Source: Mytilus trossulus (Eukaryota). Taken from it: 64,000 bases of DNA. Of this stretch, positions 6,277 through 47,170 are shown piece by piece. The stretch lies in NCBI RefSeq assembly GCF_036588685.1, contig NC_086386.1:46810001-46874000 (forward strand), in the 5' to 3' direction. A program made the position numbers and the translations under genes. Each line of letters opens with the position of its first letter. Position 1 is the stretch's first letter. Under the pieces are notes generated by a model that saw only the letters and a program-made list of their open reading frames with translations, searched no databases and was not told the origin of the DNA.

Positions 6277-9200
6277 TCAGTTGATGAATGTTGTTTTTCG
6301 AGGTGCTTGTCCAACTATGATGTCGTCTGGTGGAGATTCTATTTTCCTTTTTCTAAAATAAAAACAGTAAAAAAGCATTAGTTATATTATATTGTGTTTT
6401 CTTGCAGGTTTTCGGCCACAGACTTGACCTCGACTTGACATCAGTTTAATGACTGCACTTTTATATTGCTATCTTTTCTGTCCTCTACAGCTTCTTACTT
6501 TTTTACTATTCGATTCGAGCGTCACTAGTGACCTTTGTTTAGGAGGCGCGCGTCTGGTATAAAAAAAGTATTCCTTGTATCTAGTGTGATTTGAGCATAC
6601 CAGTCAACAAAAGAAACGATACAAAATTAATGTTGTCAATATTCTTATATTTTTCAATTTAAATTTCCTGTTAAAGTTTATTAATGTATTCAACGTCAAT
6701 AAGCATCGGTGATTTTCCTTTTTTTTTCAATCCGAAACCAGTACGACGAAAATCCTGATTTTTACTTTTCATTCCAGTAATCGAGTTCTCCCTGAATCAA
6801 TGATGCATTTAAATTGTTTGATGTAAATAATTGAGTTACTGCATCAGGTAAAAAATTTACCATCAAAATCAAATTCATAATTTGATGTCACGGTAACTCA
6901 AAAATAAGTATGAAGAGACTGTTGACATGATCAGAGCTGGGATGACGCACGCTGACGTCCTAAACTATTTTCACGTGGCAAAAATAACAACATCAAGACT
7001 GGTGATTCGTCTAAGGCAAACTGGTTAAACAAATGATACAGTCCTTGGATGGTGTAAACTTTCCACTAACACCATAAACCATTACACCATACACCTTGTA
7101 CCATTACACCATACACGTTACACCTTTGCACCATACACCTTACACATCACATGCACCATTCCCATTCTATCTACACGATCCAAAATAACCCATAATGCAA
7201 TTAAATTTCAAATATTAAGATTATTATTATTGTTTATGTTTACAATTCGAAAAAATAAAATAAAAAAAACTTCGTTTACAACCAATGAAATGTCGTACAC
7301 CATCATTCACACCATTCCCGATCGCAAGTTACACAATCACACCATTCCCCAAACACCATTACACCATTCCCCTTACTCCATACACCATACACCATACACC
7401 TTACACCATTACAACATTTGCCATACACTAGTACACCATACAAAATTTTTTTGGGGAATTTTACACCAACCAAGGGCTGTAGACCACGTAGCGGCAGAGC
7501 CCATGAGATGTAACAACACCAAGACCGCGCGATTCGTCTTTTACACTTGCACAACCTTATATTAAATGCGGAAAACACGGCCCGAGGAACAACAACAGAA
7601 TTTCGGGTCTGACAACTTGTCGAAGGCTCAGAAAGCATGAACTGTATCCAATACGTATCTTTGAAGGTCCACTCTTTAAACAGCGTCATAGGGGTGCAAG
7701 ACTTCAATATGCTCGAGCAAGACTATGTTGGATGTTGCACACCTGACGGCATATCCTGTTAACAAATAAGTCCTGATTTGCCCTCCGTTTAGTGGTGGAC
7801 GAATGAGAGTTTACAATATCCAAGGTGAACGTTTTTCGGATCCTTGTGTCAAGAAAACAGATCGCTTAGGAGGCAGAAGTGTGATGGTAAGGGGTGGAAG
7901 ATGTCACAACGGTTCCATACAGTTAAAAAACATAAATGATAACTTGAACCCTTTTGATATAGGGAAGAACCTATTTGGCCCTATTATCCTGCCTTTTATT
8001 CAACAATGCAGTTTCAACCATGTTTTTCAACAGGAGAACGCTAGGTGTCATGTGACAAGGATTTGTTTGGACTATCTTGAACTTAACCATATTCGAGTTT
8101 TTCCATAGCCAACATTATCACCGTATCTTTCTCCTATCGAAAGTAATTGGATCAACTTCGAAGACGTTTTCGAGGAAGGCAAAATTTACCGGAACCGCTA
8201 CCAGGTTTTCGTTTAGGAGTGGAACAAAATCCCCCAAGCCAAGATTATGAATTTGATTGTAGCTTTGCATCGTATGTGTGAATCTGTGGTAGCTGTGAGA
8301 GGCGGTCATGTTCGATAATAATTCTGCAAACTGAAATTCCGGATAATGACTTTGATCCGTACGTATTCAGTCCTGGTAATGTCAGGGACGCTATTTTTTG
8401 TTACTGTGTCACGAACAATGCTATAACAAACGTATTTTATCTATCTGTTTTTGTGTTCTTCTAAACGTTAATATAATATTAATATTTTTGATTTAAATGT
8501 TGTATCGTGTCTTTTGTTGACTAGTATATGTTAAAGTCTACTAAATCGTTATACGGTGTGTCGTTTTTTGAAAATAAGGTCAATTGATTTTCGTAGATAT
8601 CTTTTGCCATGGATCACAGTAAAATTGTACTTTCGTGGATATTTGATTTCAGGGTTAAGCCAATGTCTGTATAAAAGTACTTAGAACATTTATACTTCGT
8701 GGAACATTTGAATTCGTGGTTAATCGATATCCCATTGTATTTTGAGAATCTCACTGTCTTATTATTTTAAAGTGCTGTGAACTACATATATTTCACAACT
8801 CGTTCGCTATGCCCGTGTCTGTTGTGACGGTTTTGATTTTAACGAACGTAGTCTATGTATTACTGTTAAATTATAAAGCCAGGGGTTTCGTTACCACAAA
8901 TTACTTGAAACCTTTACTAAATTCGTCCATAGATATAAAGACTTGGTTTTAAAGTTTGGTTTGACCTGAAGAAACTTTTTTCAAACAGGATAGCACATAC
9001 TCATTTTTACGGAAATGTTGCTTACCGTGCCCGGAAATTTATAAAAAAAAAACCTTGTAAACTTATCGATCCTTTAAGTAAACTTATTCTAAAAGGTTAC
9101 CAATTCAACACTGTAATAAATCATTGAATATTGTTTTATTGGTATTAATATTCGATTTTATTTATCAATAATTTGAAAGCAAACTGAATATTCTTCTTCT

Positions 9201-12039
9201 ATACATATATACACATTCATTGATCTACACTCTGTCGATAAATGTACTTTGGAATTGCACAAGGTCATGCTTTTCTCTGACTGTTTATGACGTCCTTACA
9301 CTAAATCCATTGGATATTGGATGTATACTGATTGCTAATTTAGTATTAGGGGCATGATTTTTTTTTAATTAGTTGTTAGTGGCTTTGAACTAGCTGTCAT
9401 TAATTGTGATTACTCTCAGATCTGAAGTAAGTGTCTTTTTGTTGTTGTGATATACAAGTACATAGCCACGTCCACTCTGTATAGTATTTCTATTTGTATC
9501 TGATCAGTTAAGCCTTTCTCGAATGATTTTTATAGCTCGTTCTAATGTTGTACTGTAACAACACTGTCCATCGTTAGGAGAGGGTTGGGATCCCGCTAAC
9601 ATGTTTAACCCCGCCACATTCTATAGTTATTTGCCTGTCCCAATTCAGGAGCCTGTAATTCAGTGTTTGTCGTTTGTTAATGTGTTACATATTTTTTTTT
9701 CGTTTGTTTTTTTATACTTAAATTATGTAGCTAGTTTTATCGTTTGAATTGTTTTAAATTTCAAATTTCAGGGCGTTTTAAAGCTGACTATGTGGTATGG
9801 GCTTTGTCCATTGATGTAGGCCGTACGGTGACCTATAGTTGTTAATTTCTGTGTCATTTGGACTCTTGTGAAGAGTTGTCTCATTGGCAATCATGTCACA
9901 TCTTCGTTTTTATATTCAATATTTTTGATAATGTTTTTTCTTTCTTTTATAGAATGAACAATTGGTATGAATTCGATTTATTAATATATATGCAAAAGAG
10001 CAAAAATATGACACATATGAAACGGACTTTTTTAGTTTTAATCGTTTAAAACCTCTATGTCACATGTGATAGAATACACATACCTTGAACACTTCCGTCG
10101 TAAAACAAGAAACAGCAATAACAAAGACAAAAGACTTATGGATGCAGTTACACCAGCAATTATTCCTGTCTTCCCTACAACAAAAGGCATGTAGGAGTTT
10201 CATTCTGCTGTTGTTATTCAAGCATTTTATATTTATTACCAATAGTTACTTCTGCTGGTAATATATTGGTTGATTTCTAATAACACTAGGGTCTTGTATT
10301 GGCTGCTTGCAATATGTACATTAAAAAAAAATATTATTCTCACATCAGTTTTAAGTATTGATAAATATTACAAAGCAATTGTATATATTGAAGCAGCTAA
10401 CAAAACCCACTTAACTTTGAGACTTAAGAAAAGACTCTGAAAGTATTTCTAAATATATATTTAAATAAAATATATCATATATTTTATCTTTTGACGAGTT
10501 CGAATCACACATGTGGAAGGTATGCTTGACTACAATTTTAATTGACAAGGACTATCAATTTTCCGACCGAAGATCAGTGGTTCTCCGGCACTCGGCTTCA
10601 TCAGACAATAAAAATTCATCAAAGTGTCATTAAACACCAATTAATCAATATGTTTTTCCTAAGATAGATTTAATATATTTTTAGTTACCCTTATCTTCGC
10701 TCGAGGTTTTAGCTGAATAATTAGTAACGAGGATTGTGGTACTATGTGGAGTTGTACTTGGTTCCTGCGGACAGTTGTTAACAATGTGATGTGTAGCACT
10801 GGGATCTGTAAAAATAGAATAACAGATAACTAAAACGAAGAAAGTTCATTCTCAGAACTGTAAATCCGACAAGTGTATGACAAATAAATAGGTTAACGTT
10901 CAGTTGAAGATCTGCTGTTTTCGTGTTAACGGCGACCATCTTGAAAATGCAATATCCCAATTGCAAAACTGCACATGCTGGTCAGCATTATGGTATAGTT
11001 CTATTAATATTGATCATAAAATTCCGAGATACAAGCTGGACAAAAAAAAGTTGAAGAAAATAGTAAAAAAACACAGAAACTTATAATAACAGTATGTCAC
11101 CCAAACGCCGTTGAGGGTGTCATAACGAGACGTAACTGTGTTCAGATGCCATTTCCGTAGGTTGGAAATTTATCGTGGTCAAAATATCTTTGTAATTTTT
11201 AAGGCCTAAAGCGTGTATGCAATGTCATTGGAAAAAAATCAAGCAAAATCAATTTGAATTCAATTGACGTTAAAATAATGTATCCCAGTTTTTAAAAACA
11301 TTTAAATAAATATATTGAAACTGTGTGTCGACAATTTCGGAATTAATGCATTAGACTAGTGATGCGTTTAGTGAATAGAAAAGGTTGACAAAAATAAATT
11401 CCCTGTTTCTTTACTATATTTGCAACAAACTTTTGCAAAAAAAGGATACTTTGATGACCAACAACCTATATATAGTTGTCTCTGGGTCTTATCATAGTCA
11501 CTCACCTAAAACTGGTACCATAACTGGAACTAGATTACATATATACTCAAATCCACCAACGGTATACACATTTTCACTTTTGCCTGCAATGTCGAATATT
11601 TCAGATCTATGTGTGAAATCGCCAACGCCTACTCCATACACAGTAACATTATTATTTCTAAGCAGCTCCGCAGAATGTTTAGTACTTATCCGGTCATTTG
11701 AATCTCCATCAGTTAAAGTTACTACCACTTTTTCTGCGTTACTTCTACTTCCGTTTTGAAGATTAAACAATGCCCGGGAATAGTCTAAAGCCTTTGCAGT
11801 ATTTGTACTGGCTCCAATACCTTTATGAATGTGCTTAATAGCATTTAGTAGCGACTGTTTGTTTATATAAGTATCAAAGTCGAACACACCAATAGGCTTT
11901 TTGTCATACAAAACCACAGAAACTTGAATATCTTGGGTTCCTATTCTTAAGAAATTTGTAATGTTGTACACGAAATCTATTGAATGTTGAAATTGTGTAG
12001 GGCTTATACTTGCCGATGTATCAATGAGAAATACAATAT
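6277..12039 (-). CDS. Gene A: single-VWA type I membrane protein with intact MIDAS (5' exon unresolved)
   Basis: Exons 11506-12039 (VWA: DIVFLIDTSASIS, STNTAKAL, LTDGDS), 10689-10805 (DPSATHHIVNNCPQEPSTT stalk), 10084-10174 (TM GIIAGVTASISLLSLLLLFLVL-RRKCSR) and 6277-6352 (tail KRKIESPPDDIIVGQAPRKTTFIN*). GT-AG sites with phases 1,1,1,2, as in the paralogs. The last exon is the least certain. Confidence 0.8.
6600..8524 (+). mobile_element. Decayed Tc1/mariner (Tc1-like) DNA transposon in the last intron of gene A
   Basis: TA|CCAGTCAACAAAAGAAACGATACA ... TGTATCGTGTCTTTTGTTGACTAG|TA TIRs. Transposase relic at about 6885-8320 with MIRAGMTHADV, RQTG*TNDRPRSGR, FQQENARCH, SPYLSPIE and GGHVR motifs, and multiple stops and frameshifts. 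Confidence 0.92.
7039..7479. mobile_element. MITE with TA TSD nested in the Tc1 transposase; internal (ACACCAT)-like repeats
   Basis: TA|CAGTCCTTGGATGGTGTAAACTTTCC ... GGAATTTTACACCAACCAAGGGCTG|TA. Removing it restores the transposase codons TND-RPRSGR. Confidence 0.88.
8770..9910 (+). mobile_element. Penelope-like retroelement 3' relic (RT C-terminus plus 3' tail)
   Basis: Translates to DFNERSLCITVKL*SQGFRYHKLLETFTKFVHRYKDLVLKFG. The downstream tail is similar to about 5260-5600. Confidence 0.6.
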
Positions 12040-14883
12040 CTGCAAAATACATATTTATGTTTTATATTCTATGTGTGTACATATATATGTAAATTTATAT
12101 ACCATTTTTTATAGTCTCTCATAACTCTTTTTAGAGTGGCTCTTGTTTTATATAGGAAATTGTAATATTATGTAAAATATTTGTTTTATAAGATAAAATA
12201 TTGCTTGTCTTGTCTTGTCTATAAAACGTTTTATTCAATGTTGTGGATTTTTTGTTTATTTTTATCGTGATTAAGATGATAACATGTAATGTTGACTGTT
12301 GTACCCCTATTTTCGACAGTTTTTTTCTGGGTTTTTTTCACACATAGTGTCATTATATTGGAATTTTATACGACTATAATACAGGAGAGAGATTTAGCTA
12401 ACTATAAAACCAGGTTTCATCCACCATTTTCTCATAAAAATGCCTGTACTAAGTCAGGAATATGTCCATTCGTTTAATGTGTTGAGCTTTTGATTTTGCC
12501 ATTTGATTAGGGACTTCTGTTTTGATTGTTCCTCGGAGCTCAGTTTTTTTGAGATTTTACTTTTTATATGATGAATTATTTGTCATGATACATTTATTGA
12601 ATATTCATTAGGTTTTTTATTTTTTTTACATTCTTTTGATATCTTTATGATTCCCCTAACCAGAAAAATTAAGTTGAAATAGAAGTAAATTACCAAAATG
12701 AAAACATCCATTTGTGAAAATTTTCTCCTGGAATATCTCAGGTTACTTGTCCTAGTTGTGATTGGGGCTGTACTTTTAGTCCTTTTGGAATAATATCAGC
12801 CTTCAAAGTATTTAACGTTTATATTTTAACGTAACGTGCGTCGAGACGTGTGGCGGAATACAACGTTTGACAACGTCTTTAAAAAAAAAGACAGAAAGAT
12901 AAGAAAATCCATCAAGAAAATTGTAGAAAAAACATAGACTCTAATTGAAAGACTGAGCAACAGGTGTGATATCATATGCTTCAGAAAGGTAAGCAGATGA
13001 TGCTCCGAACGTGGCTACCGTTACGTTGATTGTCAAAATTTGCATCTAGTGCAATAAAATTGGTACCGCTTTTTAAAAATACTTAGTACTACTTTCCATT
13101 AAATATAAATTCTATGAAATGAAGGTTTTTCAGAAACAATAGCATCTCAGAATTTCGATAAAACAAAATCCACATTCTGAATGACGAAAAACAAATTTAA
13201 ATACATTGTATAATTCATTATGATACGTTATTTTGGTTGGCTATGACAGCAATCTCACGTCATTTCATTTCCAAATGAAATGTTCATTATGACAGTAGCT
13301 CCCGCAATAAAGTGCTTCAAACAAAGTTACTTCGGTCAAGGCTTTTACACCCAAATGAAATTTTTTTTAAAACTTGCAATTCTTAAATGAACACTTCACC
13401 TTTCAATTTTTATTTTTTTAAACTTTCAGATTTTTTCAGAATGGTTTGCTGATTTCTTACCTTCATGAAAATATCCAAATGTATTAAATTATAAAATAGC
13501 AACTTTTCAAGACAAAACATATTATTCCATTAAAGGATACGACTCGGAAAATCTGTCTGTTCAGTATGTAGGAAAGAGCATTACTGTCTTTCTTGTAACA
13601 TTTTTTTAATACAATTGCCCGAAACTTATTGAATACAGAATTTTCGTAAATTTTTTTAAGGTTCTCTTTATTAAAATTAGAAAAAAGATACAATACCTTT
13701 CTTTATTCCCATAACAGAACATAAAATATTGAATATTACTACAGCAATTATCCGGTACATTTTTCATATTGTAATTCCTATAAACATTAGGCTTCCGTTT
13801 GAGATAAACGGTGATTTCACTTCTATTGATTATTGATTTGTACAATTTGCATTTCAAAACTTGTCATTTAATCAAACAATTTTATATACATTTATTTGAT
13901 CTTTGACCGTTGTATAGGTATAGAATTCTTTTATCACTAACTAGTTTCACTGTGTCTATAGTCCGCAGAGAGATCTTTCCCTATAAATATATACGCACAA
14001 ATATCCTTGTTACACTTGTGGCGATTCTAAAAAGATAAAATTTATTATGTTGTAAAGTTTATGAAATTGAAGATAGTCTAAAGCGGGTGAAATATTTCGT
14101 GCATATTCAAATATAACAGCACATGGAATGTAGGATCACAAAAGGCGAGCATGAACTGTTCAACGCGAGTGGCTGCTAGCTTGAGCCTGGTTCAACGAAC
14201 TTCTTTTTATCATTTTTTTCAAATATACTCGAAAAACAAGATAAATCAAACTTCTCTCTTAAAAGAAGGATATTCAAAAGACTTGTATTATCAAGAAGAA
14301 AGAGATATTTGTTTTCGTCACAGATAATGGTTGAATATCAACCATTCGACTACTACAATTATCAAATTCCTGTCCTAGATTTCATTCAAACTTTTTATAA
14401 GTCTTCCCCTTTGAAACATATGCGACAAATACCTTAAATAATTCAGGTCTTGCATCTACATTTATAAATGTTTACTAGTATGTATTTTCTTTAGTCTATC
14501 CTGCATAAGGAAAACGAGATCGGTTAACACATTCTGTATGATAAAACACAATTCAGAATATCTTAGTATTTCGTATCGGAACATTTTTCATCGAAACTAA
14601 TAAGGCAATAATTTATAAAAAGAAGATGTGGTATGATTGCCAATGAGACAACTATCCACAAAAGACCAAAATATGACTTAAAACCCTCAATTATAAGAAG
14701 ATCTAAGAATTTATCATTTTGCATTTAGCATTATATCAGGGTATAAATTAGATTTATTTGATATGACTGGTGCCTTTCATGGTTGTATTTAATACACACA
14801 CCATTTAATTGCTAATTCCACTTGGAACCCATATTTTTGCGCGTATCTCCTGTAAGTCATTGCATAATTAACGTCATACCGAA

Positions 14884-15387
14884 GAAGGGTTATACAATAC
14901 AGAATAATGCGCGAAAAATTAGCAGAATAGAGGGGAGATGAACAAGCAATAAAGAATAGAGAAGGATGGGGTGCTACAAAATAAAGAATAGAGAAGGATG
15001 GGGTGCTACAAAATAAAGAATAGAGAAGGATGGGGTGCTACAAAATAAAGAATAGAGAAGGATGGGGTGCTACAAAATAAAGAATAGAGAAGGATGGGGT
15101 GCTACAAAATAAAGAATAGAGAAGGATGGGGTGCTACAAAATAAAGAATAGAGAAGGATGGGGTGCTACAAAATAAAGAATAGAGAAGGATGGGGTGCTA
15201 CAAAATAAAGAATAGAGAAGGATGGGGTGCTACAAAATAAAGAATAGAGAAGGATGGGGTGCTACAAAATAAAGAATGGAGAATAATTTGCAGAGAATAT
15301 ATAAAAAAAAGAAGATGAAGATTATAGCCTAACAAAGTTATATATAATAACAGAAATAACCGTCCATCCAGACCGTATAGAACCCTC
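14884..15387. mobile_element. Non-autonomous TIR element (GAGGG...CCCTC-type ends, about 6-bp TSD) carrying a minisatellite
   Basis: accgaa|GAAGGGTTATAC ... GTATAGAACCCTC|aacgaa. Confidence 0.6.
14949..15277. repeat. 32-bp minisatellite, 10 perfect copies plus a partial copy
   Basis: Unit ATAAAGAATAGAGAAGGATGGGGTGCTACAAA starting at 14949, 14981, ... 15237. Confidence 0.97.
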
Positions 15388-16363
15388 AACGAAATCACGA
15401 GACCATTGATTTATTTTGTCGGACTCAAGACGTCTCGAGTTGATAAACAATGAAATCAATAATCATATTACAAGAGAGAATCATGGAACTTAAAGCTAGT
15501 TTTCTTATGGTCATCAAAATCAATAGGGTATAATTCCATGATTAAGTATATAACATGAGATAAAAGTAACTACATTTTGGTACTTAAATTTTAAAAAAAA
15601 ACTGTAATAAACTTTATTCTATAGTCCAATAGATGATTAAGGGACAACATCAAAAGTTCAATGTAGGATAAAAAAAAAAAAAACGTAATTAATATAGTTT
15701 TTTCACTGACCCCCTACCCCCCCCCCCCCCCCCCCCCCTTTAACTTAATTTGGGAAAAATTGATGGACCAATAAGGATATATATAAAATCGATGTCAATT
15801 AAACAAAACTTGCAGCACTTTTGACGCCCCCCCCCCCCCCAAACTATTTGAATTTAGTTTTTCATCCTTCATTGTTTTTCATGTCGCCCCCAAGATAAAT
15901 TATGTGTGTGCATGTAAATATCCCTATTATAAAATATAATCTGTACATATATGGAGCACACTTATAAAAGAAAGAAAAAACAAGTGCATGCATACTAAAT
16001 ATAGTGACGTTGGACATTTCATGATGCAGACGGAGAGCCTTTTCCACCTGCAAATAAATATACCAAGCCAAAAACACGTCTTTATATTCAGTCAGATTTA
16101 CAGTATAGGGATCAATAATATAAGTATTAAGTTAATGTATGGTAAGTATATACTGAAGATTTAAATGTACATTGCACCAATGACTCTGTGCACCTTTAAT
16201 CCGATGTAATCCCCTTAATCTCTTTAATGTGAAAGACTAATTCCATTTCTGTGTATTTTATTAGTATCAACGTCAAAACAAAACCTTTAAGATATATGGT
16301 TATATTGTGTAAAGAAAACTATGATAAAACATCATAAAAATATGAATTATTAGTTTAAATGAC

Positions 16364-19300
16364 ATGATTCCAAGTAGGATTTTTCTTTGGATTGTTATTT
16401 TTCCATCAAATGTTTACTTGTTAAAAGGTAATGTAATATAGGTACTTTCTGGTACAAAAAAAATATTAACTAACCACTGCGTGTCCTCATGAGAGCAGAA
16501 TAATAACATAACAGACTAAACATTCAACTATTAACATGATTTTAATGATTGAGTTGAAGAGAGAGAGACAAATTTATATAACAAAATTACCATTTACTTA
16601 AAACATGTCTTTTACTGAGATCCCATAGCTGCATGTAGAAATTATAAACAAGCGAGAACCCATACGTGAAAAAAAAATTTGGAAACCAATTATGTTAAGC
16701 TGAGACTACTGTTAAGCTAGTACCAGTTTAACCAAATTAATGAAGTTTTCATTGTTTTATCATTTTAAAGGCTGTACGTAAAATGTATTTGCGTGAACTT
16801 TAAAGTATCTTAGGTATACGTCAATTAGGTAGTAATTAAGCAACCCAACAACACAAAATATCTTAAACACATATGGAGGTAACATAAAGCCATCATGCAA
16901 ACAATTATCCATACATGTCAAATAGACATGTCAAAAAAGATAAATGTCAAATCAGTCTTACATTTTTATCTTGTTTTTGACATTTTTCTCTGTTCTATAT
17001 AATGTCTGTCCATTTTTCTCTATTCCCAATATTTAAGCATGTCATTTTTTCTTTATTCTTTAATTATTTGGTCCATTTTTCTCTATTCTTTTAATTGTCC
17101 TATTATTCTCGAGTCTGTAAACCCCCATATCCACACCCTCATTTATATGACTAATTTAACATTATATACATGTACACATATTGCAGATGTAGTTTTCGTG
17201 GTGGATAAGTCAGCCAGTTTGTCAGCAGAGGATTTCTCAGAAGCTGTAGATTTTATATACAATGTGACTAAATTCATCACAGTTGGTTCAACTGCGACTC
17301 AATTCTCGGTAGTGACGTTTTCTAGCGATATCACAGAACGTTTTGATTTGAACGACTACTCAACAAATGCTACGATACTAAATGCTATTAGTGGCCTCAA
17401 AAGTATCACACCAAGTGGTAGCACGTACACATACGATGCTTTAACTTTTGTACGGACGTCTTCCTTCTTATCTTCAAAAGGAAGTCGTTCTAATGCAGAT
17501 AAGACTGTTATTATATTGACCGATGGACAATCCGTCAATTACCCGAGAACTGCAACAGAAGCTGATTTACTCAAAACTAATCTTGGTGCGGAGGTATTCT
17601 CCATTGGAATAGGCTCAGCTATATCAGCCAGTAATGTTGAGTTATTAAGTATGTCCAGCGACCCTGATTCGTATTATTCCCATCACGTGGAGTCATATAT
17701 CGATCTGTGTAGTCTTATTCCGACCGTCGTTCCTAAGATCGGTAAGTAAAACATTATATTAGAACCTGTGTTTGCAGTGAAAGCCATTTATAGATTTGTT
17801 TTATCCAAGTATTGTCTTGGATTGTTAAAGTAATCTTTTTCTAATTCACAAGGACACAATTGTGGTATCTACGAGATCTATAAGACAAGTTAGTATGAAC
17901 ATAAGGAGGCGTGGTGTGATACCAAAGAAACAAAGATATAAGACATGGTTGTTACTGATTTCTGATTTAAGCTAAAATTTAAAAAAAAATTAAAAAAAAA
18001 ACACACACACAAAACAAAACAATTGAGGCAAAAGGAAGCCCTGAACAGATCCGTGGTTTTGGACAGTCACATACCTATGCGTGGCGGGGTTAAACATGTT
18101 GAACGTTATATCGTCCTTTATCCTTCTCTAACCTGGTACAGTGTTTTGATAAAAAGACATAAGAATAAACTACAAAACCAAAGTCGTCCGCTCAGCAGAT
18201 CGACACAAAGCAACTCAATAAATGGCAAAAATCTAATTCGATTTAAAATGTGCAATTGTAAGTGTTATCGCTGACCAAAGCCCAATATCAACTAATAACC
18301 AGATCTAATTTTTATAAACCAGAATTTCATGAGGACTTGTGTATCAAATCTGTTTCAATTCATTCAAAATTAGCTTCTTAAAGAATTGACCATGTGATAT
18401 AACTTAAATAAGGACATGCCATAAATCAGTTGTTATAAAAAAAATCATATGAAATAGATGAAAGCAATTAAAGTTAACCAGATGGTCCTTAACTAGGAGA
18501 AATCCAGGTACCGCATAGTCTGTTACAAAGGGGTCATCAGACATGAAAGATATGAAACAATTTAATTGAGAAAACGGCATGATTTATAAAAAGAACAATT
18601 TGCTACATTTGATGAGACTATATATTTAAATTAAATGCTGTTTTTATTTAGATCCAACAGTTACTCCTGATGCTGTTAGTGGGTGTCCAGCGGCTGCAGC
18701 ATCAACTTCTCCAGGTAATCTTAACATGGTAAACAAATGCTTTTTGCGATAGTAATAACATGCAGAAAAGGATCAGCTTACCCTTCCGAAGCACTTGAGA
18801 TCATTACAGGTTGTTGGTAGGGTTCATGCTGTTCAGTCTTAGTTTTCTGTTTTGTAGACTTGTTTTTCTTTACGATGATTTTCATTTTTTCCATGATGGT
18901 GTTTACTTGCAATTGCGACTTTGTTGTTCCTTCTGTTGTCGTCTGCCGCACTTTTTTCTGCAGATTGTTTGAAGAATATACAAGAATCTAAAGTATATAC
19001 ATGACACTATAAAAGAATATTAAACGTATATCCAATCTTTTAAAATCATAACCTTACATTGTACTTTTAAAAACAATTCTCGGGATATTCTAGTCTGACA
19101 TGGCCTCAGTCTTCTTTAAACTAAGTGTTACTGTGTTTTTGTTAATTTTACATATGCAAGAGGTATAAGGGTATAGTTGAGATCTCACAATATATGTTTA
19201 ACCCTGCCGCATTGTAGCGCCTGTCCAAAGTCAGGAGCCTCTGGCCTTTGTAAGTCTTGTATGTTTTTAGATTTTAGTTCATTTATATGTGTTGGAGTTA

Positions 19301-33280: not shown

Positions 33281-36200
33281 CTAAACTTTTGTCATTGTCT
33301 CTTTATCGGCATTGTCTATCGTACAGTCATGATTCGTCTTTTCCTCTCTGTCCTTCAATTGTGTAAAGAATGATAAGATTAATAAAAGAATATTACTCCT
33401 TTAAATACATGCTCATATCATTTTATTCTAGAAACAATTCACATGTAAAGCAAGTGGTATAACTGTTAAAACGCAAATGTTTCCCCTGACCTACCTTATC
33501 ACAAACAAACTTCTAATCTATTCCTATATGGACTATTCGAAATCCCGTAGCACAGTAATGCGCTTTTTTTGTAAGTAAAACTATGGTCATATTTCCTCAA
33601 ATCCAAAGTGAAATTAATATTCAGATTGGTCAATTGTTTGTTTTTATCTCGCAATGTGTTAACATCTAAATAAATGCAGAAATACTTTAGATATTATTTT
33701 AAGATTGTTAAATACTAGAAATCTCACATTGGAAATTAAAGAAATGAATTACACACATACCTTTTCCTACTACACAAAAGGTATAAAACCAATATTATCA
33801 GGACCAAATTTAATAAACCCGATGACAGGATACCAATTATGACACCAGTATGTAAACCTGGAATATAAAAATTAAATATAGAAACATTCTGCATGTGCCT
33901 GTCCCAAGTCAGTTGCATGTAGTAAAGTGGTTGTCGTTGTTCCATGTCTGTCATAATTTTTTTATTAATTGTTTTGTAATAAATTTGACCATTGGTTTAT
34001 ATTTTCATATCGGGGACTTTTATAGCCGACTGTATGGTATGGATTTTTCTCATTATTTCAAGATATGTTACATCCACTTCATTTAAACTTTGATGGGTAA
34101 TTGTCTCATTATCAGTCATACTATATCTACTTAATTAAATACATAAATAAATCTTAACAGTCAAAAAAAAAGAAATGAATAATTTTAGTCATGATTGAAT
34201 TAATGTCTTCATTACACATATATTCTATTGAAATTATTCTTGAAGATAGCTAACTTTGTGTGTATGATTTTGCAAGGTATTTTGTATAACAAACGTTAAA
34301 TTTCACATTTTTTATAAATTCGACTTTCTCCTAATAATTTAGAAACAATTTTTTCTCACCGTTTCTCAATAACAAAGTTATCATTGCTGCAGAATTTGAT
34401 ATATATCATCAGAAAAATGTAAACCGTTTCTTTAATAAATTCTTGAATTGATCAGCGTCAGATCAGCATTATTTGTGCAATTAATGTAGTTCCTTGCTAT
34501 TTCAAATAGGTGCTGTCGAAAAATAAATAAAATACCTTTGTCACTTTCGGAAACTGTTTCCTCTGTTGAAGTTAGTAGTTCCGTTGACGTCGGATAACAT
34601 GAAACACAACCATTCAAGTGTATAGCTGTTGTTCCATTATCTTGAATGAAAGTTAACAAATATCTGAAAACGTCATGATTAAGGTTTATTTACACAGTAT
34701 AAAATAAAGAACTTCTTTCATTATTACTAATTATATAATCATTATTAATATTTCTATTTAATTTTCAATTATAATTTAGTGCTGGAAAGAAAATCATGCA
34801 TAATCAAAGAAAAAATACACAAACAAAAACAATACAATTCAAAATTATGATATGGTCATTTCGATTTTTCCATGCATTACTTTAAATAATTTTTAAGTCT
34901 TTAATCATACTAAAATGTAAATTATATTGATACCAGTGTCCAATTTAAGGCTTGTTCTTTCTTGAGATAAAGATTTTTGTGAATATGTTGATACTGTTGT
35001 AGTTGAATTTGTTATTTCTACTGAATTTGTCAATTCTGTTGAAGTTGAGTATGTTAATTCTGTTGAATATGGTAACTGTGTGCTTTTCCTTTCTGTAGTT
35101 GTTAATGATGTTGTTGTCAAAGTGTTTGTTTTTGTTGAACAACCATCAACTTCAGACTGTGTGGCATTCAAATCTAAAAAAAAACACAGTTATTATATTT
35201 CTTACCCTAAGCTCTGTGGTGAAATATTCTCATTTACTTCTGTAACTATAGAAGCAATTTACTGTGACGGTATAAAATACTCGTTAGCTCTAAAATCAAC
35301 TTATTATCTGTTCATAAAAATATTACACTATACTTTTAAATAAAAAAAAAAAGCCAGGTAGTTTTTTTCTTTCATCAGAATATTTCTAATCACGTATCGA
35401 AAATATTTAAAAAAATGAAAGTAATATGATGCAACAAATTATTTATATGCATAATAGTGAACAGTATCGAAATCACAGAACTTTGGCAACTTGGTCGACT
35501 CTAAATCTTTAAATGCAGAAAATCTATACCACAGCTCGTTAAATATCTGTTGAATTTTACGTATCTCCTTAATGTATAAAACATCCGCTTTGGCTACATA
35601 CTTTTCATTTCAATTCATGGCTAGAAAAAAAAGGCTCAGAAAAAAATTGTGTGTTCTATAAACGTATTTACACTTTTGGTATTTAGCTGTATTTTGCCTC
35701 CGAATGACCTTACATCACCTCCGAATAACCTTTTTGACGTCAAGCAACAATCACTTTTTAGTTGTGACGTCATATGTTTTGAATTATGAAGTCAAAGTTT
35801 ACGGGAACCTGTGTGATGTTATGTAATGGCGGACAAATTTGCATACAAGTGTAAATACGTCTATTATTGTTAAGAACTCGGATAAACCCGTTTTATGTTT
35901 TCCATATTCCATCATTAACTGTTTTCATGTATAACCATTTATATAAACGGGCAGACCTTTCAAAATGATGAGATCTACCTTTCGAGTTTTCTCTCAAAGA
36001 CAATTTTTACCTATTTTTTTTTGTCACTACCTTGAAGCGCATAATAGGTACCAATAAACTTTTATAAGCCAAAGTGATACGCAAAACAATAGTTACATTT
36101 AGTAGTGATCGTATCGTAATTGGTCGCCTTTGAAAACCGATTTATACTTATTTTATCGTTTCTAAATGGTAAAAAAAGCGTACGGTCACCTATAGTTGTT

Positions 36201-39200
36201 AATGTCTGTGTCATTTGGTCTTCTCATTGGCAATCATATCACATCTTCTTTTTTTTATATATAATCATAGTATTCAATTTCTGGGAACTGTTATACATGG
36301 AGAGAAGCTTTAAGTAGAGAACACGATGGGACATATTGTCCAAATATTCGAAATCGTGGGAACTCATTTAATGAGAATACGTTCTTTGTAAGTATTTTAT
36401 TTTTCAATATTGCTTTTTAACACCAGAATTATAGTATCTATAGAGAAACTCTAATAGCAGAAATGAGGAGCAAGACAAGGTCTATTTATAAATAAAATGG
36501 CAGAAATCGTAACTCAGCTACTTATTCGATTGATTGATAAGTGTTTGCTTTACGCCGCATTAGCACAAAAAGGCTATATCGCGGCGATCTACTTATTCCA
36601 GTGATTGTTTTTAAATGAGAATTCTTACTCTATAGTAGCTAAAGAAAATGTGTTAATTTCAAAAATTATAAGTAAAGAGAAGATCTGCAAATAAGCCACA
36701 TAGCTGAAATTCTAAGTCCACTCCTTATAGGGGTTATTTCCACTAAGAAATATAATAAATGTTTCAACCTTGTCAAAAAGTTTTAAAAGACATTTATGTT
36801 CTTCCATTTTTTTCTACTTGTAAAAAACATCCTCTTTGAAAAGATACAATTTCTATAAATCCACATTTTTATACATGGTTTCATAATTTCCATTATCGCT
36901 ATACATGTTTTGAACAATACAAGAATGATATGTATATGAACTAAATCCTTTAACTGGTCCCAAGTAGATATAGGAAGATGTGGTGTGAGTGCCAATGAGA
37001 CAACTCTCCATCCAAATAACAATTTTAAAAAAGTAAACCATTATAGGTCAATGTACGGCCTTAAACACGGAGCCTTGGCTCACAAAGTATATAACTTTTT
37101 TACTTTTATTACTAGTTCATTATAGTCAGGAAAATGGCCATTGTTATATTATAGTCCGATTCTGTGTGTGTGTGTGACATTTTAAAGTTGTGTTGCCGTT
37201 GTGTCGTTTATTTTCTTTTACATTTGAGTGTGAATTCACCTTACTATAAGACGTGTCACGGTACTTTCCTATCCCAAATTCATGTATTTGGCTTTGATGT
37301 TATATTTGTTATTCCAATCAGATTTTGTCTAAAGTTCAGTCCGTTTCTGTGTGTGTTACATTTTAAAGTTGGGTCGTTGTTCTCCTTTTATATTGAATGC
37401 GTTTCCCACAGTTTTAGTTTGTTACCCCGATTTAGTTTTTTGTCCATAGATTTACGAGTTTTGAACAGCGGTATACTACTGTTACCTTTATGTATTTCGA
37501 AATAAAGCATACATACCCAGTTTAATAGTTATATTTAAAATATAATTGCACAGATTTGAAACTTCTTCTACATAAAATATGTTTTCTGGTGAACTAGCTA
37601 TATTTGAAAAATCAGTTCTTTCAGTTGGGTCATACATCAGTGATCCAACTCCTATGACGTAAATAGCTTGAACAGTTGATTTTAAAAAAAAAGCAGAGAA
37701 TTGTGTATTTGTTGGAGAGGTTGACTGTCCATACGTGATTAGTAGTAACGAAGACTGCGCGTCTGTTCTCATTCCTGATGATGAAATATAAATATTGTCT
37801 CTAATATGATCTAATGCTTTGTGCGTTTCACGACGACCATTTAAACTGTAGTTCTTGATTGCCATAATTGCATCCAGTAAACTAACTTTGTCACTTATAT
37901 CGTTAAGATCGAACTGTGTCTTTGGTAACGTGTTAAATGTGACTAGAGCCACCATATAATCATTCGGTCCTATTTTTAATCTATTAGTCATGTTGTAAAT
38001 GAAGTCTATGATTTGAGTGAATTCGTCCACTGCAACATCAGCAGTTGTATCAACCAAAAATGTAATATCTGTGAAAAGAAAATTGACAACATAAATGAAT
38101 ACAAGATGTACCGGTACTACAAAAAGACCGATAATATATCCAAAAGGCAATAAAACTTTTTATGCGACAATATTTGAAATTATTATGATAATGAAGATTT
38201 CCTTTCGAGAGTTCTAGTGTCTGTAAGACATGTTTGTCACCTTTTTTCTGCAACTGCAAAAAAACTGAGCGTCTTAAGAATTGGTACCGATCATATACAT
38301 GTATTTGTATGCTATAACACATTCTCCGCTCTATCATTTCTATATTTCTTGATTTTCTCATGCATATAAAATATGGATGTTTCATGTAAGTTATTTCCAT
38401 TGATACACACATAAGAGATTTAATGTCGGGTATTTTGTCTGGCCATGCCCCCATAACCTGGACCAAATTTTACTTGTTTTGTTGTGTTGAAATTGCTGCG
38501 ATCTATTGTCCTCGAATTTCAATATTTTTGTGATTTTACTTTTTTCAAACAACTTGTCGAAATGAAATTTTTCGATTTTCATTGTTTTTCAAACTCGTAT
38601 TTGATTTGCCAGTCGTGTGCAAGTGAAACGCACGTCTGACATATAAGAGTATAACCTGGTATTTTTGATGAGTTTTATTTAAAAAAGAAATCTCAAAAAA
38701 GCAACCAGCCGATGCATTTTCATACTTTACGCATAAATCAACCTGTATGAGACTTTTCATAAATTAAAAAAAAAGATTACTTGGGAAACTATTTCATACA
38801 TGTTCAGGGTGAGAACAAATAAATGAATTATACAAAAGACAGGTTATGCAATTTATGGGTCAAACGGGATGAAGGCCGGGTGTTTTGTTTTGCTACTGAA
38901 AATGAGGTTGTGTTTGATGAGGGAACATATTTTGCATTGCATCATTCATGTGTGGTCAATTGTACAAGGAGTTTTAACTTGAATTGTGTTTTCTGTTTTC
39001 TGTACATGAGACAATTTTATTCAATGTTTTTGACAACCATAGTAGCAAACCGGACGCCTGACATAAGCAAAGGTCAGACTCCCAGAAAGGGTGAAATTTT
39101 AGAAATGACAACATTTTTATATCCTCGCCAAAACTTATACAAAGTTATAAAGGAGGGGCGAAAGATACCAGAGGGACATTCAAATTCATGGATCGAAAAT

Positions 39201-39481
39201 AAACTGACATCGACAAGGCTAAAAAGAAAAACACAGACAAAAAATAGTACACAAGATACAGCATAGAAAACTACAGACTAAGCAATACGAGCACCACCAA
39301 AATCTGAATGTTATATCCGTAAAGATATGCAGATCCTGCTCCACATGTGGCATCGTGTAAAATTCACACACAAAGTTGAAACATATAAAAAAACAAACTC
39401 ACCATTTTTTGTAGACAGTGTTCTGTTCATAAGCAGCGTTATGCAAAGCGTGGTACACAAAATGGTGAATAAATGTTCCAT
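33281..39481 (-). CDS. Gene D: single-VWA type I membrane protein, about 379 aa, chimeric (5' C-like, 3' E-like), degenerate MIDAS, truncated tail
   Basis: join(39403-39481 signal MEHLFTILCTTLCITLLMNRTLSTKN; 37517-38068 VWA, about 75% identical to C by hand count; 34934-35173 DLNATQSEVDGCS stalk; 34536-34640 DNGTTAIHLNGCVSCYP stalk; 33761-33857 TM GVIIGILSSGLLNLVLIILVLYLLC; 33281-33347 tail EEKTNHDCTIDNADKETMTKV*). The last acceptor is uncertain. Confidence 0.82.
36528..36588 (-). mobile_element. 61-bp 5'-truncated retroposon (SINE/LINE 3' end) with 10-bp TSD
   Basis: CTACTTATTC direct repeats at 36518-36527 and 36589-36598. The insert ends in an (ATCA)n-like tail on the minus strand. Confidence 0.75.
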
Positions 39482-40513: not shown

Positions 40514-40822
40514 TTACGGTATCATCAGCCCAGTAGTCAACATTTCGGTGTTGACATGAATATAAATAATGTGGTCATTTTTATAAATTTCCTGTTAACA
40601 AAAATTTGATTTTTTTTTAAACTAAGGATTTTCTTATCCCAGGTATAGATTACCTTAGCCGTATTTGGCACAACGTTTTGGAATTTTTGATCCTCAATGC
40701 TCTTCAACTTTGTAATTGTTTGGCTGTATAAATATTTTGATATGAGCGTCACTGATGAGTCTTATGTAGACGAAACGCGCGTCTGGCGTACTAAATTATA
40801 ATCCTGGTACCTTTGATAACCA
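40514..40822. mobile_element. Abundant dispersed repeat (related copies at about 2180-2290, 6480-6580, 23410-23750, 31250-31340, 42670-42860)
   Basis: Shared GAGCGTCACTGATGAGTCTT..GTAGACGAAACGCGCGTCTGGCGTA core. Confidence 0.7.
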
Positions 40823-42250: not shown

Positions 42251-45200
42251 TCATATAGGAATTTTCACATCAATGATAGACGATGTGACACTTCTTTCAC
42301 CAAGATTTTCATACACTGAAGACAGTGTATCATTTTTGTCCATTGCTTTAGTAGTTTTGGAACTGAGGCTGGTAGTGTCTCTCTTGTACATGTGTCTCTT
42401 TTCTCCTAAACTTGTGTCATTGTACTCATTTACAGCCTTTACTATATCATCTTCTGGACGAATCTGGTCCTTTTTGTCTTTTCTTCTAAATGAAATAAAA
42501 AAATAATAAAACTGTAATTTGATTTATAGAAGATTCTATGAACTATAGTTATTTGACTCAAGATGAAATTTTTATTCTTTCCCTTAAAGCAAGCGTAAAA
42601 TGTTCTAAAGCAGAAAGTAACTCATCGAAGATTAAAATCATATAATTGTGTACGCGAGACGCGCGTTTTGCATAGATTACCTTAGCTGGATTTGGCAAAA
42701 CTTTTAGATATTTTGGTCATCAATGCTCTTCAACTTCGTACTTTATCTGGTCTTTTCAACCTTTTGGGATTCGAGCGTCACTGATGAGTCTTTTGTAGAC
42801 GAAACGCGCGTCTGGCGTATATACATAATTTTGTCCTGATATCTATGATGAGTTTATTTGTCTACATATATCTCAACAGTGGCACTCGAAACAACAAAAA
42901 AGTTGAAATTAAAGTCCAAATCAAAAATTGACGACCACTGGAAACCGAAAATAAAGTTTGTCTGTGGGTTTTTTTTTTTAGGAATCTGACGTTTTTAATG
43001 ATAAAATTAATTATAAATAACACTCATCATACCTTTTTCTTTTATACAAGAGGTATAATACGCAAGCTAAAATTGCTAGAATCAGTAAACATGCTAGCAG
43101 GATGCCTACTACGGCACCGATATCTAAACCTAAAATAAAGAAAATAGATATTTTTCAATTAGCCTTAACAATTAAAAAATAAACAAAAACAAATATGGGT
43201 ACTATTAAATCTCAAGTTGATAAATATGAAATAAAGCTAAAGTAATGGAAACCAATTTCGGGTTAAGATTTTAACCTTAGTAATTATAAATCAGAGCTGA
43301 TAATGAAATTGTGTTTATTTGTGCATCAGACATGACAAATATTTTAATAACCTGCATACGGTCAAGATGTAAACAGGGCTTATAATACGTTTATCATAGT
43401 TCGTGATATGTGTATTGGAGGAATAAAAAAAAAATGATTATTATACTAGTATACAACTTCAATACAAGATCATACAAGTGAAATTAACACATCACATTAA
43501 CACAAATTTGGTAGAGATGGAGCTGATAAAATAATAATCGGAATAAATAAATGTATGTGTCAGTATGGTTAGTATATTTGTCTTCATCCTCGACTTTTTC
43601 ATCACAATTTGCATTAATTGCTCCAAGGGTTTTCTCAATCTTTCAAAATGTTTGCAGTTGATTCATTCAAAATTGACAAGTTACTTTGACAGTGAATTAT
43701 TATAAGTATTAATGCGCAATAGTGTTATCGTAGTTGATGAAAATTATCCAATCAAATACCTTCGTTTGTTTGGGAAATTGGCGCCTCAGTCATTCTTTCT
43801 GTTGAAGTTATTTCTGTCGTCGTTGGCTCTACCCACTCATCACAACCATCCACCATTGTAACTGTTGTTTCATTATCTTTGAAGTAAAAAGGTGTATTTG
43901 TGAACATATCTTACATCATCAAACCATCTGAAGAGGTTAATAGAATTATTATAAGTAAACTGTAACAGAGTGTTAATTACCCCGACCTTACGCGTACGGT
44001 CGGACCATAAGTGTATATACCCATATGGTCATGATCATACGCGTATGGTCCAAATACTCATATGGTCTGGAACATTTCCATAGTTTACATTGTAGATTAA
44101 ACAAACGTGTGGCATTATTCACAAAATTTTAACAACCCATCATATGAGAAAGCTGATGATACTGCAAAATTGACAGATTATGGAAAATTTAAGAATTTAT
44201 CCATAGAATCTAATGGAAGGACAGTCTTGCTCTTTCTTAGACGTGAGTCTTTGTATTGTCTTCCAATACTTATTACTTTAGTAATATTTTTTTGTTTTAG
44301 GTACCAACTTTTCTTTAAATGTTTAATAATTATCACAATGTCTTTAACAACAACATGGCGAAATACCAAAAAGTATTATGCTCTTAGACATTCAAATTCA
44401 AATTCGATTTGACACATTTTTAAATTTTAAATTTTAACTACACAAGAAGTGCAAATAAATGCAGAAATTTGAATTGTAAATTATATCTACATTCAAATAT
44501 GTCTGAATAATTAAGTATATAATAATAACTTTATTATAATTGAGATTGTGACACATGTACAGTGATGACTGCTGTACACCTATTTTTACCTATTTTCTCT
44601 GTTTTGTTCACGCATCGTTGTAAATATATTGGAACTTGATGCAACAGTCATACAAGTGAGAGGTTTAGTGCTATCAAACAAAGTTTAATCCAACTTTTTC
44701 CGCCTATGAAAATGTCTGTACGAAGCCAGAAATATGACAGTTGTTATCCATTCGTTTGATGTGTTTGAGCTTTTGATTTTGTCATTTGATTAGGAATTAT
44801 ATCTAGAAAGTGACTATGAGGGTCGGTTGATGAAAAAAACTTTACAACTAAAGAGATGATTTGAGCTTCCCAATTGCGACATTTTCATCTTTAAACCAAG
44901 AGTTTCAAATGGTTAATTTGAAATCAACACTTCGTAAATTTTACAGACGCCATCATGAGTTAGTTGCCGTTATGGAATATTCGTCATACGTATGGTATCG
45001 GATATGTTCTCTTTGTCGTAATTACAATCCCGTTCCATTTTCACGAACGTGTCACCTACCAATTTTCTGGCTTTGTTATAACATGACCAACACGACAGGT
45101 GCTACATGTAAAGCTGGATCTGCTTACCCTTCCGAAGCACATGAAATCACCCCCAGTTTTTTATGGGGCTCGTGTTGTTCTTGTACTCCTATTTGTTACA

Positions 45201-47170
45201 TTTTGGTCACGTTTCATTGTCAATATAATGGAATCTGATGCGACTGTCGTACAAGTGAGAGGTTTCGCGCTATAAAAGCAAGTTCCATCCACCATTTTCT
45301 TATTTTTGTAAATGCCTGTACCCGGTCAGGAAAATGAACGTTAATGTCCATTCGTTTGGTGTGATTTATAATTTGATTTTGCCAATTGATTAGGGACTTT
45401 AAATTTCTGTTTTGAATTTTCCTCGGAGTTCAATATTTTTGTGATTTTACTTTTTATAATAAGTATTACAGTAACCATTAACTATTCAATATCTTATGCT
45501 TTATTAGATGCAAAATGAATTATAGTTAAACACCAAATAAATTAAAATCATGCTGAAACAATTCCATATCAATCTAAATGCAAACATAAAAGAGGGGGGA
45601 TAGGAGGGGTCCTAATCCCGAAATCCCGGGCTTAAAAACACGAAATCCCGAGGTCCCGAAATTCGAATAAAGAATTCCCGGATCCTGAGAGGGTCAATCC
45701 CGAGCTTAAAAACAACCGATCCCCGCCGGAATCCCGATAAAGGTCCTATCCCCCTCATAAAAGACTAGGATATCGAACATATCAATGGAATCGTGTTAAA
45801 ATATCTGATGACACGATAGATATAAAAAAAAAACTGCATTGGTTTGTACATTTACCATTCAGATTATTATTTGAGACTCACCAATCTTAGGTACAATGGA
45901 TGGCACAATTCCACAAAGATTTATAAATCCACCAATATATTCAACATAATAAGAGTCGGGATCGTTTGCGATTCCCTGCAATTCGTCATTTGTTTTAGAT
46001 AAATCTGAACCTATGCCTATAGCGAATACTTCTGCTCCATATGATGTTCTGAGATCGTTTGCTTTGTTTATAGTTTGAGGTGTATTAGTCGAAGGGCCGC
46101 TTTCTATCACAATAACAATTTTACCAGCATCACTGCGGCCCCCTTTTATGGAAAGGTAAAGTGTTTTCGTATATGTTAATGCGTCCATAGTTTTCCTCGA
46201 AGGAACGAATGATTGAGAGTATGCTATGTAGTTTATACCTGTCAGAAGACTTGCTTTGTTAGCATAATCGTCTAACTCAAATTCGGCGTTTGCCTCGTCA
46301 TCAAACTTAACGACTGCCATTCGAATGTCATTGTCGCCAATAGTAAGATATGATGTCACATTGTAAATGAAACTCATGGTCAATGCATGGTCAGTTGCTG
46401 ATATCGAACTTGAAGCATCTAACAACCAAATAACATCTACAACACAACAAATATGAGTAATCAATGTATGTAGCTACACTTGTAACGGAAGACGGTTTAC
46501 TTCAATTAAAACTCCCTTTTTAATCGAACTAGAATTGTCAATTTGTTAGTAAGAGAAATGTTTATCTTTAGAAATTCAAAACATTTATGAAAAAATTTGC
46601 GGGCTTTTATAGTAAGAACATTAATACATGACCAATATAGCTTACAAAGAAATTCTAACAGTAAAGAAATTATACTTGTCAGTTGATTTGTCAAATACGC
46701 ACATCGCAGATAGCAGCAGAGTCCAGAAATATAAATTTTCTAAAATGGCATCTACTAGTTGTAAATGAGTACAAATAAAGAAATATTGCATTCAATGGTT
46801 CATGTGACATTTTGAACATGGTTTGGCAATCTCTTGTTTTCTTTTATCATCCCTGGATGCTAAATTGTAGTCCTTCCCTTCTAGTATTCAAAACTTTTAA
46901 AAATTGCTTATAAATTACATCAAGAATAATAAAAGTATGTGTCTTCTCCTTCCAGAAACGATTGTATGCAACGCACAGCAAAGAAATGCAACTTAATTTT
47001 CTCTTAGTAAATTCACAATCCCCTCATACCGACTATTTTAATTCTGAATTTGCCTCCGCAGCCATCCTATTCAAGAGTATTTATTATGTTCCCATACCTT
47101 TATAAGATCCTCTACAGTTAGTAAACAAAAGTCCAAACATTATCAGAAACACCGTTGTTCTCAACATCAT
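42251..47170 (-). CDS. Gene E: single-VWA type I membrane protein, 358 aa, partial MIDAS, ITIM-like tail motif
   Basis: join(47098-47170 signal MMLRTTVFLIMFGLLFTNCRGSYK; 45882-46436 VWA with DASSS, PSRKT, IESG; 43760-43876 DNETTVTMVDGCDEW stalk; 43033-43129 TM IGAVVGILLACLLILAILACVIYLLY; 42251-42485 tail with SSVYENLG, ending DVKIPI*). 1077 nt, open frame, GT-AG. AATAAA at 42185-42190 on the minus strand. Confidence 0.9.
44800..45180 (+). mobile_element. Penelope-like retroelement 3' relic (internally deleted)
   Basis: KRDDLSFPIA and LNQEFQMVNLKSTLRKFYRRHHELV motifs, followed by the family tail. Confidence 0.65.
45592..45756. mobile_element. 165-bp MITE with 6-bp TSD and internal ATCCCG repeats
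   Basis: ATAAAA|GAGGGGGGATAGGA ... TCCTATCCCCCTC|ATAAAA. Confidence 0.82.

Follow-up and report, generated by a model that had tools for sequence, protein, structure and literature searches.

A cluster of five paralogous genes (A–E) occupies positions 6277 to 47170 of a 64,000-nucleotide stretch of Mytilus trossulus DNA (NC_086386.1, positions 46,810,001 to 46,874,000; hereafter the window). The genes share a common plan of leader, one VWA exon, Cys linker with Ser/Thr stalk, transmembrane exon and tail, and belong to a mussel–oyster family that is not confined to the cluster. The family is apparently undescribed and appears to consist of single-chain I-domain membrane receptors. In the reading favored here, with a probability of roughly 55%, these single-pass proteins, which carry a collagen-VI-type VWA (I) domain on a Ser/Thr-rich stalk, are integrin-independent adhesion receptors of mussels and oysters. 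By placing an integrin I-type domain directly on the membrane, the family would represent a further, independent route to an I-domain adhesion receptor.

The cluster runs from gene A's stop codon (6277) to gene E's ATG (47170), exactly the span proposed in an initial annotation made from the DNA alone, which had also claimed the shared exon plan, sizes and phases. Six-frame translation of the window reveals five VWA-coding exons between 11.5 and 46.4 kb, of 534 (A), 555 (B), 552 (C), 552 (D) and 555 nt (E), all of which pass the cut-off of the Pfam VWA family PF00092. Transmembrane exons measure 91, 97, 100, 97 and 97 nt in A to E, and splice-site scans give intron phases 1,1,1,2 with GT/AG ends in the five models. 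The linker exon opens with Asp and has Cys 11 residues further on. A strict scan for such linkers (AG/AT boundary, Cys at +11, phase-1 donor) finds exactly six exons in the window, all within the gene models, and none in 10 shuffled 64-kb strands; the corresponding transmembrane scan finds exactly the five loci, with three matches in 10 shuffles. Modeled proteins have 293 (A), 304 (B), 421 (C) and 358 (E) residues, with B on the plus strand and A, C, D and E on the minus strand. The single plan claimed for all five genes holds for A, B, C and E; gene D has six exons, two of them linker exons instead of one, and lacks the AG of its tail acceptor. For the two leaders of A and B and for C's tail, the models use the best candidate exons, which are predicted only; each of these leaders finishes in Lys ahead of its phase-1 donor, as in E, in the additional members F–H described below and in the oyster members. 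An alternative B leader at 16021–16141 was dismissed because it is not hydrophobic.

Along with the five-gene architecture, the splicing of B and the model of E are established. Model E agrees letter for letter with RefSeq XP_063414515, which carries the name ‘collagen alpha-3(VI) chain-like [Mytilus trossulus]’. Splice joints were compared in contigs from four public runs of four studies, found with gene B and guessed to be RNA, although no RNA entry on record carries the B stretch; A and E lay outside the compared stretch, and joints were read only among those listed. The VWA–linker and linker–transmembrane joints of B occur in contigs of all four runs and its transmembrane–tail joint in three of the four, in each case with GT..AG introns, and the leader and VWA exon of C share a single contig of one run (X7). 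Provided that the runs are RNA, as guessed, transcripts thus bear out the splice model of B from VWA exon to tail and the beginning of that of C. Joining of the VWA exons into a secreted multi-domain protein, which the initial annotation named as a refutation, is contradicted by the B contigs, which run from VWA through linker and transmembrane exon to tail.

Database models with the same plan span eight named species and include those of M. edulis, M. galloprovincialis, M. coruscus, M. californianus, Saccostrea, Crassostrea virginica and Ostrea edulis. Gene E has orthologs in five Mytilus species, and two proteins found only in Logan (P0029 and P0034) cross all exons on contigs of ∼1.3 kb. 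Members are named collagen (VI, XII, XIV or XX), matrilin or VWFA-domain protein, or are left uncharacterized; the predicted mislabeling as collagen VI or matrilin is therefore real. Hidden under such names, they would have been read as extracellular matrix in expression and proteome studies. These names, together with an M. edulis model (P0035) that fuses E to the next VWA, are what would be expected if the exons were fragments of secreted collagen-VI or matrilin-like genes accompanied by chance transmembrane exons. That explanation is hardly tenable: it is already contradicted for B and E, and it is opposed by the spliced VWA–linker–transmembrane–tail contigs, the eight-species distribution of the plan, the opposite directions of A and B, the shuffle controls on linker and transmembrane exons, and Gly-X-Y runs that never exceed two.

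Outside the cluster, family members lie on sequence C14 at 42.237 Mb (F), 42.250 Mb (G), 5.313 Mb (H) and 63.141 Mb (I); F and G have near-copies on C26, and C15 holds a broken copy, J. Four genome searches, each of which scored the best 150 of 220–281 candidates, all gave the same set, amounting to at least nine loci in this genome and about 10 old paralogs. Linker and transmembrane exons are present in F, G, I and J. In H (C14:5310350-5313689, minus strand) the linker is present and no transmembrane exon occurs in the 15 kb examined; its last exon gives a 20-residue, moderately hydrophobic end that is possibly a glycosylphosphatidylinositol (GPI) signal. The VWA exon of J (C15:7547500-7550132) has a start tripled in tandem and a frameshift, so that J is either a pseudogene or an assembly error, despite having the best-conserved tail motif of the family. 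The region C26 3.58–3.61 Mb is a near-copy of the F/G pair at C14 42.24–42.25 Mb, with dS values of 0.12 and 0.04, and is probably an uncollapsed haplotype.

The coherence of the family is supported by several measures. A profile of nine genomic domains gives full-length family domains at least 212 bits and all others at most 151; such a profile favors its own rows, but oyster members outside it still score 231–256. All 21 family rows fall on one side of a branch with support 99/97, in a tree whose outgroup took from each of the 30 top non-family proteins its best domain, the others being left out. The family signature is Cys-x21-Cys: one Cys sits in helix 7 and the other in the linker, exactly 22 residues on. 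This pair is found in A–E, in the oyster proteins and in every family model with a linker, and in only one of 948 near-complete non-family VWA domains, 404 of which carry a Cys just before strand 1. Only one Cys follows the VWA domain in A, B, C and E. Named matches come exclusively from mussels and oysters, with weak taxon sampling beyond these two groups. A profile search of 1.84 billion representatives supplied outgroups rather than a view of the family's range, the 150 rows listed being all multi-VWA; a metagenome contig scan with E gave 198 pattern matches, none confirmed, and the ESM Atlas rows listed contained no cluster of this family, with best feature scores of 0.79–0.80 that are leads only. 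The initial claim of an undescribed VWA system is upheld insofar as no paper describing the family was found in searches that left supplements and most subscription journals aside, where members could be listed under collagen names.

Several known systems share elements of this layout. Apicomplexan TRAP is a type I membrane adhesin made of a single chain, in which an N-terminal I domain is followed by a stalk and a tail (PMC7351488). The fold of E matches that of TRAP/MIC2 with Z 20.6 (4hql), and TRAP is its top ESM feature match at 0.80, a lead only. The mussel family is from a different lineage, has no thrombospondin type-1 repeat, shows 16–18% identity, and possesses its own Cys-x21-Cys pair and tail motif. 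ANTXR1/TEM8 and ANTXR2/CMG2 likewise combine one VWA domain bearing a MIDAS (metal-ion-dependent adhesion site) with a single transmembrane segment and a cytoplasmic tail (PMC10343017). With Z scores of 18.8–19.5, the mussel proteins differ from them by a low identity of 15–20%, a mucin-type stalk, a short tail and the absence of an Ig-like domain. As had been claimed, they are single-VWA membrane proteins, and of type I: in five full-length members no Anth_Ig or other Pfam family besides VWA scores above cut-off, and only 32–125 residues of linker and stalk separate VWA and transmembrane segment. The I domains of integrins alpha1, alpha2, alphaL, alphaM and alphaX have the same fold (TM score 0.84) and a MIDAS such as that of A and B; the mussel domain differs in standing outside a propeller, having no beta subunit and carrying its own transmembrane segment and tail. 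A collagen-VI-type origin is likely common to both (PMC12422189). The closest domain relatives are collagen VI/matrilin-like molluscan multi-VWA proteins and PTMP1 (at most 151 bits, Z 22–23), from which the database names derive; these relatives are multi-domain proteins, typically with a Cys before strand 1 and another after helix 7. Compared with collagens VI, XII and XIV and matrilins, the mussel family has one VWA domain, a spliced transmembrane exon, no triple helix and a separate clade. The family thus resembles TRAP or ANTXR in layout and belongs to neither, nor is it integrin or collagen/matrilin. An arrangement of ligand domain, mucin stalk and transmembrane segment also characterizes TIM, CD44 and GPIb-alpha; the mussel ligand domain differs from theirs and no homology is claimed. 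A VWA membrane protein described from a coral is built otherwise, with three VWA, TSP-1 and F5/8 domains (PMC4890752).

Variation among the paralogs affects the ligand site, the stalk and the tail, as initially noted. Window VWA domains are 29–43% identical to each other, except for C and D (75%), and the ectodomain of E is 31–43% identical to those of the other window paralogs. The MIDAS signature DxSxS..T..D (PMC10343017, PMC7155146) is complete in A, B and F–I. In E, DxSxS is kept and the T and D are lost (DASSS..K..S), and C and D have DTTAD, with Glu and Tyr replacing the canonical residues. Stalks range from 13 to 106 residues with 31–55% Ser/Thr. The AlphaFold model of E displays a standard VWA fold (predicted local distance difference test, pLDDT, 86) that resembles three kinds of domain about equally, integrin alpha1 I, PTMP1 and collagen VI; stalk and tail come out disordered when the full-length protein is modeled. 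The signal peptide joins straight to strand 1 in proteins of 293–421 residues.

A mechanism can be proposed on this basis. In the I domains of integrins, reorientation of the MIDAS and a downward movement of helix 7 are coupled (PMC3164198); helix-7 dynamics are common to collagen VI and integrin domains, and the chordate I domain is held to stem from collagen-VI-class domains (PMC12422189); TRAP function requires an open/closed switch (PMC10328070). From these three precedents we infer the mode of adhesion of A and B. Together with F–I, they would bind Mg2+ and engage an acidic residue on an extracellular protein, which most likely belongs to the matrix or to a cell surface. Adhesion by A and B would be cation-dependent and possibly strengthened by tension. 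The two family cysteines are predicted to form a disulfide tying the stalk to helix 7. With strand 1 as the predicted start of the mature chain, helix 7 and the disulfide-tied linker would be all that holds the domain, and pulling could favor the open state with tight binding, as it does for integrin I domains and TRAP. The stalk, presumably O-glycosylated, would set the reach, and the tail motif may recruit an adaptor or a linker to the cytoskeleton. In C, D and E, canonical metal ligation would be lost and binding altered or metal-free; E may signal through phosphotyrosine and D may act as a tail-less version. The paralogs form a natural series (MIDAS on or off, stalks of 13–105 residues, tails with or without motifs) for studying force sensing and signaling by lone I domains.

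The tails match no Pfam family in the five full-length members. They show to varying degrees the motif hydrophobic-x-x-Y-x3-[PS]-[LI]-G-x-x-[KRS]-x-x-[FY]. A profile built from four oyster tails scores 30.7 bits on mussel J, with 0 of 500 shuffles as high; the corresponding counts per 500 are 1 for C, 2 for E, 8 for A, 8 for P0029, 9 for G and 28 for B, and F and D are not matched at all. These scores suggest an old tyrosine-glycine motif kept in J and eroded in the window genes. A genome search with the J tail recovered only J. The resemblance of the tail sequence IVGQY to the ankyrin motif FIGQY of L1CAM was dismissed as too short. In addition, the tail of E carries SVYENL, which five Mytilus species and P0029 retain as S/T-V-Y-E-N-L. 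Among the window genes this hexamer is unique to E, and we take it to fit the consensus of an immunoreceptor tyrosine-based inhibitory or switch motif (ITIM/ITSM). No charged transmembrane residue occurs in any of the five models, and no tail has an immunoreceptor tyrosine-based activation motif (ITAM).

Gene D is a chimera. Collinear matches at offsets of 7.7–9.3 kb cover the segment from E linker to C linker and show a tandem duplication of ∼9.2 kb, which explains why the leader, VWA and first linker of D are C-type and its second linker, transmembrane exon and tail E-type. From this structure, which is that expected of an unequal crossover, such an event is inferred. Both linkers are also present in the M. 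californianus ortholog, whose tail stops before the motifs of E, so the chimera is older than the split from that species. In the present assembly the tail acceptor of D reads AC and the RefSeq model is partial; the reading frame of the tail stops before the family motif and VYENL, giving a truncated tail. At 34640–34662 (minus strand), the upstream acceptor used by M. californianus D isoform X1 would run into a stop codon.

Where it is measurable, selection is purifying. Nei–Gojobori dN/dS, a whole-domain average from few pairs, is 0.28 for C versus D; between the F copies it amounts to 0.08 and between the G copies to 0.19. The variants listed for gene B are synonymous in 8/8 cases (run X1) and 17/19 cases (run X6), with four sites common to both runs. 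The VWA domain of F is identical to that of M. coruscus at 175/181 positions; for E the figures are 164/185 with M. edulis and 149/185 with M. coruscus. Allelic amino-acid variation is low for B, F and G in the few copies seen. A cluster of changes in E stands apart from this average picture: 7 of 11 changes unique to this genome fall in residues 90–103, just before MIDAS loop 2 (p 5e-5 to 1.5e-4, for an interval chosen afterwards and in one haplotype). A frameshift as the source of this burst was dismissed, since the codons read as point substitutions, as was a donor paralog, since no similar segment exists among the aligned family domains.

The likeness to variable or paired receptor loci put forward in the initial annotation is mostly unsupported by these data: the paralogs are old, have orthologs across Mytilus and are under purifying selection where it is measurable, charged transmembrane segments and ITAMs are absent, and none of the five is an activating member with a near-identical ectodomain. 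As for immune-type recognition in general, the claim is not borne out overall and is retained for E only, through S/T-V-Y-E-N-L and the burst beside the ligand face. The family could nevertheless consist of immune or self/non-self receptors on hemocytes or epithelia, in which members with an intact MIDAS would recognize microbes or opsonins such as C3 fragments, the latter in the manner of chordate alphaM and alphaX I domains, with E inhibitory and D its tail-less decoy. The conserved hexamer of E, its cluster of changes (p about 1e-4, post hoc) and the duplication of C/D that produced a new chimera all point in this direction, and the description of integrin I domains as chordate-specific (PMC12422189) leaves room for another I-domain receptor. 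On the other side stand the lack of an activating counterpart, the strong purifying selection on B, F and G, exemplified by the near identity of F to M. coruscus, a set of about 10 old paralogs instead of a large variable family, and a burst seen in one haplotype only. The immune alternative is accordingly a possibility to be taken seriously, though an unlikely one. If E is a recognition receptor, it would be a candidate for mussel immunity and for species barriers. A role of the family in gamete recognition, with E contributing to the barrier between Mytilus species, would agree with species-specific changes clustered on the predicted ligand face of E, but the single haplotype and the conservation of the other paralogs make it very improbable.

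A further alternative is that the proteins are membrane partners of secreted VWA proteins and collagens and fasten secretory epithelium to the matrix of byssus, shell or periostracum, which would be a tissue-specific form of adhesion. The byssal protein PTMP1 is the closest solved mollusc fold, named members come only from mussels and oysters, the VWA domains are mostly acidic (pI 4.0–4.7, with 6.2 for A), and H may end in a GPI-like signal instead of a transmembrane segment. The PTMP1 match is generic, however, with 24–26% identity, level with integrin and collagen domains; searches with 12 accessions, supplements excluded, found no proteome paper naming members, and the restriction to mussels and oysters is subject to the weak sampling already mentioned. 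This more specialized role is rather improbable.

Adhesion in the broader, integrin-independent sense remains the preferred reading, and several observations weigh against it. The canonical MIDAS is missing in three of the five window paralogs (C, D and E). With a linker pLDDT of about 64, the disulfide and the force coupling are predictions. The tail motif is weak in the window genes, and the motif interval was picked after J and E had been seen. Whole-domain dN/dS averages from few pairs can hide selected sites, and the conserved VYENL and substitution burst of E fit a recognition receptor better than a plain adhesin. A bolder and doubtful synthesis would be that bivalves independently made the collagen-VI-type VWA exon into a stand-alone, force-gated I-domain receptor, in parallel to alphaI integrins and TRAP, and that it serves as a recognition system in mussels; MIDAS-intact members would read opsonins or self ligands, E would be inhibitory with a ligand face changing species-specifically, and D would be a tail-less decoy made by unequal crossover.

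Table 1. Exons of the five VWA receptor genes, in window coordinates
Feature	Position	Strand	Remarks
Gene A leader, candidate signal peptide	13697..13760	-	ends in K like the family K/D junction; candidate
Gene A VWA exon	11506..12039	-	intact MIDAS DTSAS..T..D
Gene A Cys linker + short stalk	10689..10805	-	linker scan, gene model
Gene A transmembrane exon	10084..10174	-	transmembrane scan, gene model
Gene A tail exon	6277..6352	-	weak match to family tail motif, 8/500 shuffles as high
Gene B leader, candidate	16364..16427	+	gene model
Gene B VWA exon	17187..17741	+	intact MIDAS DKSAS..T..D; spliced in 4/4 runs
Gene B Cys linker, shortest stalk	18652..18714	+	splice scan, run contigs
Gene B transmembrane exon	20114..20210	+	gene model, run contigs
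Gene B tail exon	21589..21724	+	transmembrane–tail joint in 3/4 runs
Gene C leader	30091..30169	-	one contig with VWA exon, run X7
Gene C VWA exon	28713..29264	-	degenerate MIDAS DTTAD..E..Y
Gene C Cys linker + 104-residue stalk	27083..27424	-	55% Ser/Thr
Gene C transmembrane exon	26064..26163	-	transmembrane scan, gene model
Gene C tail, candidate	24407..24599	-	oyster tail profile, 1/500 shuffles as high
Gene D leader, C-type	39403..39481	-	in partial RefSeq model P0051
Gene D VWA exon	37517..38068	-	degenerate MIDAS; 75% identical to C
Gene D linker/stalk exon 1, C-type	34934..35173	-	also in M. californianus P0030
Gene D linker/stalk exon 2, E-derived	34536..34640	-	also in M. californianus P0030
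Gene D transmembrane exon, E-derived	33761..33857	-	comparison with E
Gene D tail region, approximate	33282..33362	-	decayed copy of E tail; acceptor AG absent in assembly; ortholog tail in P0030
Gene E leader	47098..47170	-	identical to RefSeq
Gene E VWA exon	45882..46436	-	degenerate MIDAS DASSS..K..S; residues 90-103 with 7/11 lineage-specific changes
Gene E Cys linker + stalk	43760..43876	-	splice scan, gene model
Gene E transmembrane exon	43033..43129	-	splice scan, gene model
Gene E tail exon	42251..42485	-	family motif + SVYENL

Other elements were observed within and around the cluster. The last intron of gene A contains, at 7500–8320, a decayed transposase remnant (open reading frame 7770–8105), presumably Tc1/mariner-like, and a tandem array with a 36-nt unit is sited at 14950–15275, between the leaders of A and B. 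The minus strand at 59661–64000 contains several exons for a low-complexity protein rich in Gln, Ser, Thr and Pro; the two of them that were tested match no Pfam family. Beyond gene E, exons at 47533–47629, 53164–53303 and 53922–54112 (plus strand) encode a Quiver/Ly6-type three-finger protein (PF17064, E 2.4e-6) with a hydrophobic C-terminus, and the candidate leader of this gene stands head to head with gene E, ∼360 nt from its ATG.

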